From an uncultured Verrucomicrobiae bacterium (GTDB taxonomy: Bacteria; Verrucomicrobiota; Verrucomicrobiia; Chthoniobacterales; JAFAMB01), in contig CAWEXO010000010.1 in the NCBI GenBank assembly GCA_963813025.1, forward strand, positions 1 to 12,743: 12,743 nt of DNA. Direction: 5' to 3'. Below the pieces are notes generated by a model that saw only the letters and a program-made list of their open reading frames with translations, searched no databases and was not told the DNA's origin. Positions 2,462-12,666 of the stretch are shown in pieces (positions within the stretch are counted from its first letter, which is position 1; every line of letters begins with the position of its first letter). Both the position numbers and the translations under genes were made by a program.

Positions 2462-3499
2462 TCACTCGGCCATCAGCTTCGTTACTTGTGGCCCAAGGTC
2501 CGCCGGCTGAACGGCAGTTGATCGCACGATTCCGGCTTTATCGATTAACCAACTCTCGGGAATCGAGTGGACCCCGTATTTCGCGGCAATCCCAGTGTTC
2601 CAGCCTTGTCCATCGAAGTATTGCGGCCAGGGCAGAGATTTTCGGGCAATGAAATTTTCCAGGGCTTGACGATCCCGATCCAAGGAGATACCGACTACGA
2701 CAAAATCGTCGCGATATTTTTGCCAGACCTCTTTCAAAGCCGGCAATTCGCGAATGCAATCGGGACACCAGGTGGCCCAAAAGTTGATCAAGACGACTTT
2801 GCCGCGCAGTTTGCCCAAATCGAGGTTGCTGCCGTCCAAGGAGCTGAAGGATAACTTGAGGGGTTTCCCGATCAGCTGGGCGCGATCGAGTCTGGCCCGC
2901 GCAGCCTCCGCCGCTTTTGGATCACTGGAACGCGAGAGCTGCTGCAGAAAGTCAGTCGCCTTTTTGGAGTCAAGCCGGAACAGGAGATCAGCCCGAGCGA
3001 GCTGATACGGTACCGTTTCGGCCGCGGATGGGTGGGCGGCCAGGAAGGCTCCGATGCGTTGTTCCAACGCGGACAGCTCTTCGCGGGAGGATAGCGCGTC
3101 GGAATTGTCGATCCAGTTTTCCAGCGCGGCCTGGGCGCCCTGGGAGCGAAGTTCCGGAGAAGCCGTGACGTTTTCAAGCGCTCGAACGTCTCTTTCATTC
3201 TGCTCAAGAAGTGAAAGCCGCTCCGGAACGCTGCCGGCAAAGTCGGTAGTCTCTATCTTCCAGACGAGAGCCAGGGGAGCACGGCTATCTCCGGGGAATT
3301 GTTGGACGAAAGCGGCCGCTGCCTCGTGCAGGGCGTTTTTGGGACCGGCACGAAATTCGACGGCGTTCACCCCGGCCGGCACCGGTGCATCAACCCTTTG
3401 CCGCAACTGTTGGAGCTGTTGCCAGTGGGAGTCCGCCTCCGGCGCGGCAAAAGCCGGGATCAGCCAAAGCAGCAAAAGGCTCGCAATCAAAAATCGCAT
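2462..3499 (-). CDS. Exported TlpA/ResA-family thiol-disulfide oxidoreductase with an N-terminal helical domain
   Basis: Signal peptide MRFLIASLLLLWLIPAFA; C-terminal redoxin domain LRGKVVLINFWATWCPDCIRELP...GISLD...YGVHSIPESWLIDKAG. Confidence 0.9.
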   Translation of the reverse strand: MRFLIASLLLLWLIPAFAAPEADSHWQQLQQLRQRVDAPVPAGVNAVEFRAGPKNALHEAAAAFVQQFPGDSRAPLALVWKIETTDFAGSVPERLSLLEQNERDVRALENVTASPELRSQGAQAALENWIDNSDALSSREELSALEQRIGAFLAAHPSAAETVPYQLARADLLFRLDSKKATDFLQQLSRSSDPKAAEAARARLDRAQLIGKPLKLSFSSLDGSNLDLGKLRGKVVLINFWATWCPDCIRELPALKEVWQKYRDDFVVVGISLDRDRQALENFIARKSLPWPQYFDGQGWNTGIAAKYGVHSIPESWLIDKAGIVRSTAVQPADLGPQVTKLMAE

Positions 3500-3759
3500 G
3501 GAGATTCGATAATATGGTCGCGCGTTTGGTCAAGCACAGGTTGAAGCAGCTCGAGCGGCTTGCGACGTAGCGCGGACGGCCTCGTCCGTAAATCTCGACT
3601 GTCCGCTGGAATAGGTGGTCCGCCAAGATCGTTTCCAAAGCTCACCGAGAGCCGAAACTTTTTCGGAACCGGTCACCACAAAGAAGAAAACGGGAAAGCC
3701 AGCATGCCGAGAAAGGCTCACTATGCCCCGCTGGTGCGGCGAGAGGTACGGACGAGGCC

Positions 3760-4112
3760 GGGCGTGTCGGACTTTGGAAATCTGTAGCACGCCACCAAGC
3801 GAATGGTCGCCCGAGCGGTTAGAGATCGTCTCAGAATGCCGCACTGTCTTGTGGCGGTAGGGCGAAAATTTAGAGCATGTCTCGCAACATCCCAAAATCG
3901 GTAGGGCGAGAATTCATCTGAGCCTTGGGCGAAGACTCGTTCGAGCCGGGCGCTGCGGCAGGTCACACTGAAGACGGCTCAAACAAGTTCTCGCTAAAGC
4001 TCGAATAAATTTTCGCCCTACCGGCGCAGGACCAAAGACGCTTTGGGACATGTCTCGAACCTTAGTTAGCTCGATTGCGCGAGCTACAGATTGACCAAAG
4101 TCCGACAGACCC
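3760..4112. mobile_element. 353-bp MITE with ~30-bp terminal inverted repeats and a 6-bp target-site duplication
   Basis: Left end GGGCGTGTCGGACTTTGGAAATCTGTAGC (3760-3788). Reverse complement of the right end (4083-4112) is GGGTCTGTCGGACTTTGGTCAATCTGTAGC (26/30 match). GAGGCC is duplicated at 3754-3759 and 4113-4118. No credible ORF inside. Confidence 0.88.
3899..4023. repeat. Long inverted repeat / REPIN of a second GTAG family (family B) inside the MITE
   Basis: cgGTAGGGCGAGAATTCATCTGAGCCTTGGGCGAAGACTCGTTCGAGCCG (3899-3948) versus the reverse complement of 3975-4023, cgGTAGGGCGAAAATTTATTCGAGCTTTAGCGAGAACTTGTTTGAGCCG. A third, truncated copy GTAGGGCGAAAATTTA lies at 3857-3872. Confidence 0.85.
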
Positions 4113-4132
4113 GAGGCCCTCCGCGCTACGCA

Positions 4133-4168: not shown

Positions 4169-5281
4169 TCAGCCAAATAATTCGAGTTGGTTTCGTTGCA
4201 CTCGGCGGAATGCGGCAGTGCTCAATTCCAAGTGTCTTTCGGGCAGACCAGCCCGGCGGCAGCCCACCTCAAAAATCCGCTGCATTTGCTCGGCCAACAA
4301 TCCCTGGCCTTTCATGCGTGACCCAAAACGCGAATCGTTCAATTGGCCATCCCGCATCGAGCGAATCCGCCCGAGGATCTTTTCGGCGGCTTCAGGAAAT
4401 TGGGCATTGAGCCAAGCAGTAAAGATTGGAGCAACGGATAAGGGTAATCGAACCATGGTGTAAGCGGCGAACCGGGCGCCGGCTTCGGCTGCTGAGGCCA
4501 AAATATCGGGAATTTCATGGTCGTTCAGGCCAGGAATTACCGGCGCTACGTTGACGCCGACGGGAATCCCGGCGCTCGCCAGCGTGCGCACCGCATCCAG
4601 CCGAGCGGCCGGCAAGGAAGCTCGCGGTTCCATTTTGCGAGCGAGCTCGGGAACGAGAGTTGTCACCGAGATAGTCACACCGACAGCACTCCAGCGGACC
4701 AGCTCGGTCAGGAGATCGAGATCACGCACAACCAAGCGATTTTTTGTAACGATAAAGACCGGATTCCGAAACTCGGCGAGGACAGCCAGGCAGGCGCGGG
4801 TCAGGGCGAGCTTGCGTTCGATTGGCTGGTAGCAATCGGTGACGCCGCTCATCGTAATTACCTGCGGTTTCCAGCCAGAGGCACTCAGCGTTTGGCGGAG
4901 AAGTTCGGCGGCACGTTTCTTCACCAGAATACGCGACTCGAAATCCAGGCCGGCCGAGAACCCTAAATATTCGTGGGTTGGCCGAGCGTAACAATAGGAG
5001 CATCCGTGCTCGCAACCACGGTACGGGTTCAAGCTCACATCGAACCCGACGTCGGGGCTTTGGTTATGGGCGAGAATGGTTTGGGTGTCGTCCCGCAGGA
5101 ACTCGGTTCGGCGCAAGGGTTGTAGGGAGGCGTCGTTGGAGCTGGACGAGTCTTCCAGCCAATCGTCGGGCTCGTAATGGAGTCGCTCGAAACGATTCGG
5201 CGGGCTGATCGTAGCGCCGCGTCCTTTTGTCGTTGGATTAGAGGGATGGGACGCCATCCGGTAACATCGACCGGCCTCCAT
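4169..5281 (-). CDS. PA0069/Rv2578c-family (SplB-like) radical SAM protein; start may be 5257
   Basis: SLNPYRGCEHGCSYCYARPTHEYLGFSAGLDFES (CxxxCxxC), VTDCYQPIER, EPRAS, PVIPGLNDHE; ends QLELFG. Confidence 0.93.
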   Translation of the reverse strand: MEAGRCYRMASHPSNPTTKGRGATISPPNRFERLHYEPDDWLEDSSSSNDASLQPLRRTEFLRDDTQTILAHNQSPDVGFDVSLNPYRGCEHGCSYCYARPTHEYLGFSAGLDFESRILVKKRAAELLRQTLSASGWKPQVITMSGVTDCYQPIERKLALTRACLAVLAEFRNPVFIVTKNRLVVRDLDLLTELVRWSAVGVTISVTTLVPELARKMEPRASLPAARLDAVRTLASAGIPVGVNVAPVIPGLNDHEIPDILASAAEAGARFAAYTMVRLPLSVAPIFTAWLNAQFPEAAEKILGRIRSMRDGQLNDSRFGSRMKGQGLLAEQMQRIFEVGCRRAGLPERHLELSTAAFRRVQRNQLELFG

Positions 5282-5298: not shown

Positions 5299-5325
5299 TA
5301 TTCGATAGGCGCTAAGGAACGCCCC

Positions 5326-5341
5326 AGGCCGTCCGCGCTAT
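5326..5341 (-). repeat. Half copy of family A REP
   Basis: Minus strand reads ATAGCGCGGACGGCCT (15/16 to the REP 5' part), then diverges right after the loop. Confidence 0.6.
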
Positions 5342-5388
5342 GCCGAAGAGGTCGCCATGACATGAGGACTGGAGAACCGGTTATTGGT

Positions 5389-6343: not shown

Positions 6344-6594
6344 AGTTCAAGCAGTGGTTTGAGCGGCATCAGCGGCTGGCGTAGCGCGGACGGCCTTGTC
6401 CGTAGCCTTGCGAGCGGGAAGCCACCACAAACAACAAAAGCATTCCGCACTGCTGGTATAATCTGGAGTCAAAGCGGTCGCGGCGCGCTGCCAGTGCCAC
6501 GAAAGTACGGACAAGGCCGTCCGCGCTACGCAGCAATCAGCAGTCCGCTCATGTCGCGCAAGCCGCTGACGCCGCTCAAACCGCTGCTTGAACT
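6344..6594. mobile_element. Intact REPIN-like doublet (family A REP)
   Basis: Outer arms 6344-6377 and 6561-6594 form a 34-bp inverted repeat with 2 mismatches. Inner GCGTAGCGCGGACGGCCTTGTCCGTA (6379-6404) is a perfect 26-bp inverted repeat of 6506-6531. Spacer about 100 bp. Confidence 0.9.
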
Positions 6595-10667: not shown

Positions 10668-11311
10668 ATGTCAAAAAATGTTCATTCCGCGCCGAGCAAT
10701 CTTCTCGTTCCGATGGTCATCGAACAAACCGGACGGGGGGAACGGAGTTACGACATTTATAGCCGGCTACTGAAGGATCGAATCGTTTTCATCGGAACGG
10801 CGATCGATGATCATGTGGCGAATCTGGTCGTCGCTCAGATGCTGTTTCTCCAGATGGAAGATCCCAAACGAGGATATCAATCTTTACATCAATTCGCCCG
10901 GCGGCTCCGTGACGGCTGGTCTGGCGATTTATGACACGATGCAGTTCGTGACCTGCGACGTGGCTACCTACTGCATCGGCGTGGCCGCGAGCATGGGCGC
11001 GGTTCTTTTGACGGCCGGCACCAAAGGGAAGAGGTACGCGCTGCCAAACTCCGACATCATGATCCACCAGGTCTCCGGCGGCGCTCAAGGCACGGCGAGC
11101 GACGTCGAGCGCACGGTGGAGTACATGTTCAAGCTGAAAAAGCGGCTCATCAGTATTCTCGCGCATCACACCGGCAAAACGGACGAACAGATTCAAGTCG
11201 ATTCGGATCGCGACTATTGGATCACGCGCGCAGCAGGCGAAGGATTACGGACTTGTCGACGAAGTGGTGAAGTCGCGCAAAGATGTCGCTCCCGGAGCCG
11301 TTGCCGGCTGA
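10668..11311 (+). CDS. clpP: ATP-dependent Clp protease proteolytic subunit, with two apparent +1 frameshifts (~10869, ~11227)
   Basis: [27 protein letters not shown] / [13 protein letters not shown]...AASMGA...MIHQ...DRDYW / [27 protein letters not shown] (TGA 11309-11311). Removing 2 nt restores a 213-aa ORF. Confidence 0.95.
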
Positions 11312-11395
11312 CGGCTGACAACGCCGTTGCCCGCTTAAGTGTTTATCTAACTGGACGAAGTCACATATTTGGACGGATAATTAAGGATACAGAAT

Positions 11396-12666
11396 ATGGC
11401 TCGCGCATCTAACCTCACAATGTGCTCTTTCTGCGGCAAGAGCCATGCGGAGGTGCGCAAGCTCATTGCCGGCCCGGCGTTTACATTTGCGACAATTGCA
11501 TCAATGTCTGCAAAGGCATCCTCGACAAGGAACTGAACGAGGACGCCCGGCGGCAAACGACGAGTCTGCGTGTGCCGAAGCCGGCCGAAATCCGGCGCCA
11601 GCTCGATCAGTATGTCGTCGGCCAGGAGCCGGCGAAAAAGGTGCTCGCCGTGGCGGTTCACAACCATTTCAAGCGCATCCTGCAGACCAACGGCAGCAAG
11701 GACCTCGTCAATGGATCCATACGCCGATGTCGAGATCGAGAAAAGCAACATCCTTCTGATCGGCCCGACCGGCTCGGGAAAGACCCTTTTGGCTCGTACC
11801 CTGGCGCGGATTCTCGATGTGCCGTTTTGTATCGCGGATGCCACGACGCTGACCGAGGCCGGCTACGTCGGTGAAGATGTCGAGAATATCATTCTGCGCC
11901 TGTTACAAAATGCCGACTACGACGTGAAACGTGCCGAGATCGGCATCGTTTACATCGATGAAATCGATAAGATCGGGCGCAAGACGGATAATGTCTCCAT
12001 CACGCGGGATGTTTCCGGCGAAGGCGTCCAGCAGGCGCTTCTCAAGATCCTGGAAGGCAGCAGCTGCAACGTTCCGCCGCAGGGTGGCCGCAAACATCCG
12101 CACCAGGAATATATCCAGGTCAACACGGAAAAAATTCTCTTCATCTGCGGCGGCGCGTTCGTCGGACTCGATAAGATAATCAGCGGCGTATGGGCAACAA
12201 AGTACTCGGATTCCATACAACGCCAAATCGCGGTGACGAAGATAGCAGATCAGAAGAAATCTGAAAAGCACCGAGCCGGAAGACCTGCTTGCTTTCGGAA
12301 TGATTCCCGAATTCATCGGACGTCTCCCGGTCGTCACCGCGCTCGATGCGCTGACGGAAGAGGAGTTGATGCTGATTTTCACCGAGACGCGGAATGCGAT
12401 GGTCAAGCAGTACACCAAGCTGTTGGCGATGGAAGGAGTCAACCTGGTCGTCACCAAGTGATGCCTTACGCGCCTTGGCTCAGCAGGCGGTCACGAAAGG
12501 CACCGGCGCGCGCGCGTTGCGTTCGATGTTCGAGAAAATCATGCTCGACGTCATGTACGAAGTGCCGAGCCGGGAAGATATCGCCGATGTCGTGATTAAT
12601 CGCGCCGTCGTGGAAGGCAAGAGAGCGCCGCTGATCCGCAGAAAACAGGACAAGGACGCAGCGTAG
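11396..12666 (+). CDS. clpX: ATP-dependent Clp protease ATP-binding subunit, with five apparent single-base indels
   Basis: [15 protein letters not shown]...CDNC zinc-binding domain, [42 protein letters not shown] loop, [15 protein letters not shown]. Frame changes near 11474, 11710, 12180, 12261 and 12456; net correction gives 423 aa. Confidence 0.95.

Follow-up and report, generated by a model that had tools for sequence, protein, structure and literature searches.

The window analysed here, a whole contig of 12.7 kb (12,743 nucleotides; contig C10), belongs to a 4.4-Mb genome, G000, that is 80% complete. In the spacer separating two co-directional genes on its minus strand, one for a TlpA-like protein and one for a radical SAM protein, lies a 353-bp element without any open reading frame of note. 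The features are given below in order of position. C-numbers denote contigs of G000 unless G001 is named, and L-numbers denote loci retrieved in searches; G001 is a congener, 79% complete, and G007 is another genome of the same family.

2462..3499, minus strand: flanking gene for a TlpA-like thioredoxin/redoxin protein (context only)
3567..3590, plus strand: intact, GTAG-tagged REP A, the uninterrupted arm of the REPIN that carries the element in its right arm
3591..3746, no strand: REPIN spacer of 156 nt, with copies at C2:6384-6535 (89%, filled) and C4:110597-110722 (76%, empty)
3747..3753, minus strand: inner stem arm of the split REP A
3754..3759, plus strand: left copy of the target-site duplication GAGGCC (REP A loop and closing pair)
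3760..4112, no strand: non-autonomous element (MITE) with IS1182-type ends, 353 bp, non-coding
3760..3777, plus strand: left terminal inverted repeat; its first 15 bp, GGGCGTGTCGGACTT, form the conserved end of IS1182 type, to which both ends of L569 are identical
3857..3872, plus strand: family D internal GTAG repeat (GTAGGGCGARAATT...); in the C16 copy, IS110 family a is nested in the corresponding region
3901..3924, plus strand: second family D internal repeat
4000..4021, minus strand: third family D internal repeat, inverted; the C14 copy contains a nested IS110 family b at this site
4095..4112, minus strand: right terminal inverted repeat, GGGTCTGTCGGACTT...
4113..4118, plus strand: right copy of the target-site duplication GAGGCC
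4119..4129, minus strand: outer stem arm of the split REP A, with its GTAG tag and one mismatch
4169..5281, minus strand: flanking gene for a radical SAM protein (context only)

Deletion of 3760-4118, that is, of the element and one GAGGCC, leaves TACGGAC-GAGGCC-CTCCGCGCTAC, which differs at one position from the reverse complement of the REP at 3567-3590, just as an earlier sequence-only reading of this DNA had proposed. Its description of an insertion into a REP hairpin with a 6-bp duplication also holds, but the "loop" that it named as the site needs correcting: the duplicated bases are a 4-nt loop together with its closing pair, centred on the axis of the palindrome. The terminal inverted repeats are identical at 16 of 18 positions (3760-3777 against 4095-4112) and with an indel extend to about 33 bp, near the ~30 bp first estimated, but the conserved end is 15 bp long by comparison with G001, which retains only that much of it. 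Internally the element is a mosaic built from family D, an abundant GTAG repeat. The strong fold of 3747-4129 (z -8.1) comes from the nested inverted repeats and is no evidence of function.

The target has the attributes of a GTAG-type REP in a REPIN, namely the tag, the hairpin, 46 exact cores, inverted doublets and RAYT-like genes. The label REP is justified by the last of these, as RAYT-like genes are found beside each of REP A, C and D, for example the one at C5:185071-185694 among REP A/H arrays. The split REP is the right, inverted arm of its REPIN, and the doublet 3567-4129 has paralogues. In the one on C2 an element (C2:6020-6370) occupies the same loop in the same orientation, with a spacer 88-89% identical to that of the window; in the one on C4 the REP is intact, providing an empty paralogue. 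Of eight element copies in REP A, the C10/C2 pair alone has long flanks in common, the others matching over no more than 24-29 bp, and the window and C2 copies are probably one insertion that was copied along with the REPIN. The search for an empty allele was answered by the C4 paralogue and not at the exact site, the orthologous spacer of G001 having neither the REPIN nor the MITE. Contigs of sequencing run X1 cover the locus partly and break at the element, and none has a joint that skips it, an outcome with no bearing on whether an empty allele exists. Elsewhere in the window, at 6344-6594, a further REPIN has two perfect inverted REP A copies (6379-6404 and 6506-6531) inside 38-nt arms; these arms consist of a short repeat resembling GAGCGGCTT, which is likewise present beside the element site and fills the orthologous spacer of G001.

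A search with a profile of the ends found 107 ends at a score of at least 20 in G000 and one in the reversed-genome control, and the element family is not a chance match. Adjacent ends form 28 pairs. Five other short copies are about 89-97% identical to the window element over most of its length, none of them exactly so, and two further copies (on C14 and C16) are 91-96% identical to it once a nested IS110 is removed. The exact 15-mer occurs 44 times in G000 and 45 times in G001, the only genomes with multiple copies among the 43 of the family, 40 of which have none; it is present as a single copy in 8 of 400 genomes of the phylum, a result like that of the control. The interiors between the ends of G001 differ from those of G000, and some G001 elements are nested within the REP loop of other elements.

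Remnants of the element are also present. At C9:115638 an 18-bp stub in which two ends meet lies between GAGGCC and AAGGCC, and there are REPs in which the first five bases of the element end stand in place of one arm; both are consistent with decay. As a side observation, the REP A copy at 5314-5343 of the window has its inner arm replaced by GGGCG and resembles a footprint of element loss, with similar cases at C8:75502, C11:969665 and G001 C4:334300-334522. At five other loci (L131, L133, L138 of G001, C1:194305-194571 and C11:71795-72143) the two loop copies beside the element point in opposite directions or are reversed with respect to the usual REP, and L138 is a fully palindromic nest, arrangements suggesting loop flipping or template switching.

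Tabulating the ends with their flanks and duplications in G000 and its relatives, the check that the earlier reading had called for, yielded many copies with halves of REPs beside them. In exact register (offset 0), 53 of the 107 ends abut one arm and the loop of REP A, B or C, while six do so at offset 1 and at most two at any other offset; at random sites the half-REP test (at most 3 mismatches in 13) was passed by 188 of 100,000 (0.19%). This enrichment is partly circular, as the half-REP motifs of families B and C were derived from the flanks of the ends themselves, and exact intact copies of REP A, B and C do exist in G000 (46, 16 and 12, respectively). Among the 54 ends that failed the test, 21 have G(A/G)C at a distance of five or six bases, a feature with a random frequency of 7.7%. 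The position of the break within the REP recurs from copy to copy, though not in the 100% of cases seen for the autonomous elements of PMC1525189, and the proposal that REP centres serve as landing sites is borne out for many copies and for three REP families.

The duplications are mostly centred on the axis of the palindrome, with 6 bp at an even centre (REP A) and 5 bp at an odd one. A perfect 6-bp duplication flanks 5 of the 28 pairs, every one of them in REP A, with both orientations represented, and a perfect 5-bp duplication flanks 4; the 6-bp duplication noted in the window therefore applies to REP A but, with 5 bp at other targets, is no constant of the family. The remaining 19 pairs have neither, and in several of them the halves come from different REPs or the loops are inverted. 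In the rebuilt empty sites, four to six of the six flanking pairs are complementary in 6/6 cases for REP A and in 5/9 cases for the 5-bp duplications, and two perfect 5-bp duplications, at C15:134770 and C13:233258, are surrounded by weak stems. REP A, in either orientation, and REP B hold elements with near-identical interiors.

REP A and a close variant seem to differ in their use as targets. REP H has the loop of REP A with one stem pair swapped; its 27 intact copies are accompanied by no end adjoining a REP H half, against 14 exact halves at ends and 46 intact copies for REP A; of the 22 ends with that form of flank, 21 have CG before GAC. The contrast is a hint at stem discrimination and only a hint, since the element copies in G000 are not independent events.

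The family of the element is indicated by its ends. The left end of the window element matches both ends of L569 at 15 of 15 positions; L569, in an Opitutales record, is a deleted IS1182 of 564 bp that contains a DUF772 fragment and has GGGCGTGTCGGACTT at each terminus. Matches of 13-14 of 15 were found for the G007 element and for L571, L558, L338 and L345, and L571 and L558 carry GGGA- variants of the end that also occur among the ends of G000. L569 and L558, which are GGG-ended IS1182 elements, lie outside REPs and lack a clear duplication. Scored with the end profile, IS1182 ends give 17-25 and the two window ends 25.2 and 26.7. A first end scan of genome contigs gave mostly chance matches, except for five loci in one Verrucomicrobiae record, and from chance-looking matches with CTAG flanks in that scan a wider end pattern was built. 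It retrieved at least 124 loci across many phyla, comprising MITEs of about 160 bp and elements of 1.5-1.6 kb that encode IS1182 transposases: all four proteins tested from elements with such ends score 318-367 bits against NCBIfam NF033551 (IS1182; cut-off 270), and three have Pfam DUF772 and DDE_Tnp_1_6. Twelve loci in viral contigs all belong to this CTAG clade. Scanning metagenomes for the ends gave matches dominated by an IS21 coding stretch and no relevant element, and a plasmid BLAST search returned a single 33-bp match, a chance one. MITEs of about 162 bp with IS1182 ends at CTAG sites (L330-L465) are very widespread in Proteobacteria, Nitrospirota, Bacteroidota and other groups.

Full-length elements of the IS1182 family show the same kind of target. 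A query of the 43 family genomes with an IS1182 protein identified G007, which has nine IS1182 copies of about 1470 bp with ends GGGCTTGTCGGACTT and GGGGCCGTCGGACTT and a transposase gene at L494:1596-2870. Eight of the nine lie at the axis of a CGTCCC-NNN-GGGAC repeat, and four have a perfect 5-bp duplication, the others being mismatched as in G000. Perfect 5-bp duplications at hairpin axes also flank all seven copies listed in OY969764 and both of the full IS1182 copies L533 and L537, and the relatives of the G007 transposase fall into two target modes, 4-bp CTAG or 5 bp at hairpin axes. More distant IS1182-like elements with other ends and conserved palindromic or repeat flanks were also seen in G018 (L468/L478), G033 (L476/L483/L487) and G015 (L482/L486/L490/L493).

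From these comparisons we suggest that the element is, very probably, a MITE derived from an IS1182-family insertion sequence, inserted at REP axes and mobilised in trans. Like such a MITE, it has matching inverted repeats, shares its ends with elements that encode an IS1182 transposase, and is short, non-coding, multi-copy and flanked by a duplication. An IS1182 transposase was not found in G000 (80% complete) or G001 (79%) with PF13751, protein queries or a DNA query, and no transposase with these ends was found there among matches to PF13751, PF01609, PF14294, PF13610, PF03400 and PF12762 or among multi-copy repeat families longer than 600 bp; the mobilising enzyme is inferred by analogy with other genomes. 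The search for a transposase bounded by the same ends thus failed in G000 and G001 and succeeded elsewhere, in the 15/15 match of L569 and the nine copies of G007. The family looks old, given the lack of an IS1182 transposase in the searches of G000 and G001 and the 89-97% likeness of the copies. The sequence-only view of a non-autonomous DDE-type element mobilised in trans is supported in its outline, with the amendments that no such transposase was found in the genome as assembled and that at least one copy probably multiplied as REPIN cargo.

The same view had placed the element near the Mutator-like IS256/ISKra4 group, and this kinship, along with an origin from IS4Sa (as in ISRm22), IS1, IS1595 or IS6, is very unlikely given the 15/15 match to IS1182 ends. 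IS256-type transposases are indeed abundant in G000 (36 matches), but sequence around nine IS256-type loci scores no higher than 6.3 for such ends. ISKra4 is judged here from its description in PMC3942029, where insertion is random for IS256 and promoter-targeting for ISKra4 and whose main text contains neither "6 bp" nor "6-bp". An IS4Sa origin would fit the 6-bp repeats that ISRm22 makes at a REP axis (PMC1525189) and the left end of ISRm22, which begins CAGGGCTGTCC; against it, DUF4372 is absent from G000 and a broken copy in G001 has other ends. PF03400 (IS1) and PF12762 (IS1595) were not found in G000 or G001, and the IS6-like loci have other ends. A Tn3/TIME origin was rejected because G000 and G001 have only 15 bp conserved in common.

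Several long copies contain IS110 genes between their ends (C14:355532-357202, C16:83566-85598, C8:159722-161737 and the C12 and C15 copies), which could be taken to mean that the element derives from IS110 in the manner of the ISPpu9 mini-elements. We consider this origin close to untenable. The genes belong to two unrelated families, with 10 and 8 listed copies, that insert at fixed bases of REP D and lie mostly outside the pairs of inverted repeats, and removing the IS110 from the C14 and C16 copies leaves an ordinary MITE with 91-96% identity; on these grounds the IS110 genes are passengers. A third IS110 family was noted as one copy, just after a REP B loop; loci recorded in G000 for these IS110 families are C8:159935-161739, C13:237717-239152 and C13:18498-20151. 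The TIR-bounded copy at C15:123519-125459 contains a partial IS110 gene and an intact-looking, REP D-flanked RAYT-like gene of 157 aa, and a 96% copy of the latter lies at C14:454612 without the ends.

A different history would have the ends as IS1182 relics, most copies having been spread by RAYT (HUH) transposases within composite REPINs after few true insertions into REP loops. In G001, about 25 inspected loci show an end joined to the same REP B'-REP C doublet, in most cases lacking a second end; the window and C2 copies have a common REPIN spacer; RAYT-like genes are flanked by REP A, C and D, one of them inside a TIR-bounded copy; and the searches of G000 and G001 yielded no IS1182 transposase. 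All of this would fit such a spread. We nonetheless think it unlikely as the main route, though far from negligible, because direct 5-6-bp duplications in three REP families and both orientations require separate staggered-cut insertions, and because the REP A copies other than the C10/C2 pair have no long common flanks. HUH enzymes are not known to make staggered-cut insertions with direct duplications. One-ended HUH insertion as the primary mechanism was rejected on account of the direct duplications, while RAYT-driven spread is compatible with the IS1182 explanation as a later, second route.

Hairpin targeting by an IS1182 element (IS1272) and insertion at a REP axis (ISRm22) have both been published. 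IS1272/TnSha1, of the IS1182 family in staphylococci, targets hairpins of differing sequence in both orientations and deletes the hairpin partly or wholly, with no duplication (PMC4923244, PMC5678879); palindrome targeting by some IS1182 members is attributed to Siguier et al. 2015 in PMC4923244, and duplication of the loop is drawn as a merely theoretical alternative in Fig. 13c of PMC5678879. The window element resembles these in its family, its short terminal inverted repeats and its insertion in hairpins in both orientations, but it keeps both arms and duplicates the centre, targets REPs and is non-autonomous; the deletion of the target without duplication that marks IS1272-type replacement is not seen. 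ISRm22 (IS4 family, IS4Sa) of Sinorhizobium meliloti is likewise a DDE element at the axis of REP palindromy with 6-bp direct repeats (PMC1525189, PMC2266710), several copies having mismatched repeats that are attributed to recombination, as hybrids (PMC1525189), and mismatched repeats are shared by the copies described here. Unlike the window element, it has another transposase family and other ends, is autonomous, and uses one REP family and a single duplication length.

The other REP-targeted elements, IS1397/ISKpn1/ISPsy8 (IS3 family) and IS621/ISPpu9/ISPa11 (IS110 family; PMC1525189), differ in having 3-bp (ISPsy8), 2-bp or no repeats and other chemistries, and the IS110 mode of REP targeting is present in G000 as a separate, nested system. 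The CTAG-targeting IS1182 clade, with (G/C)AGYCTGTCGGACTT ends that match the window element at 13-14/15, also yields MITEs (~160 bp), but with a 4-bp CTAG duplication at dispersed sites as against 5-6 bp at REP axes; ISPse1 of Paracoccus, an IS1182, has a 16-bp IR and a 4-bp DR (PMC3281130). With REPINs/BIMEs and RAYTs, as described in PMC3116915 and PMC3733652, the window element has in common its target and interior of GTAG-tagged REP doublets flanking RAYT-like genes, and it departs from them in its DDE-type ends and direct target duplications. A search of the literature, apart from ISfinder, gave no description of the element or of IS1182 MITEs in Verrucomicrobia REPs.

We propose that an IS1182 DDE transposase acting in trans would bind both ends of the element and join them to the two strands of a palindromic target with a stagger of 5-6 nt, five bases at odd and six at even centres, so that gap repair would produce the target duplication; the enzyme might recognise the target either as an extruded cruciform or as a symmetric duplex sequence. 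The transposase may since have been lost, or may lie in the unassembled fifth of the genome. The copies would afterwards have diverged, been rearranged as ends recombined with ends and REP arms with REP arms, and been invaded by REP-D-targeting IS110 elements, while some, such as the window copy and C2:6020-6370 in one REPIN, may have multiplied passively in REPINs. Landing in REPs would hold the element in intergenic, already tolerated positions. The less ordinary aspects are the dependence of duplication length on parity, a possible discrimination among stems and a possible hand-over to REPIN mobility. A broader and rather doubtful conjecture unites them: one IS1182 clade might find the symmetry axis of a palindrome, adjust its stagger (4 bp at CTAG, 5 bp at odd-centred and 6 bp at even-centred REPs) and read the stem too, as the use of REP A and never of its one-pair variant REP H would imply, with orphan ends, once the transposase was lost, hitch-hiking in RAYT-driven REPINs in a hand-over from DDE to HUH. 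Such a clade would be a natural instance of the loop duplication drawn in PMC5678879. The clearest case for this hand-over would be the one-ended units of G001, in which an end is joined to a REP doublet.

The element would add an example from Verrucomicrobiota to hairpin-seeking IS1182 transposition, and the G007 element is an intact, multi-copy partner suited to testing axis-centred cutting and the 5- versus 6-bp stagger. Four layers of nesting meet in one intergenic spacer system (the REPIN, the MITE in its REP, the REPs in the MITE, and IS110 or RAYT in those), a source of local rearrangement. G000 otherwise has a heavy IS load, with an IS630-like family of 29 copies and the IS256-type loci (36 matches), as well as a group II intron-like reverse transcriptase present in two copies (C14:295294) and, on C5, duplicated NRPS modules, all labelled from translations. 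Within the window, clpP and clpX are broken up among several reading frames, and a short-chain dehydrogenase gene is seemingly shortened internally (10668-12666 and 1201-1659), probably through assembly indels.
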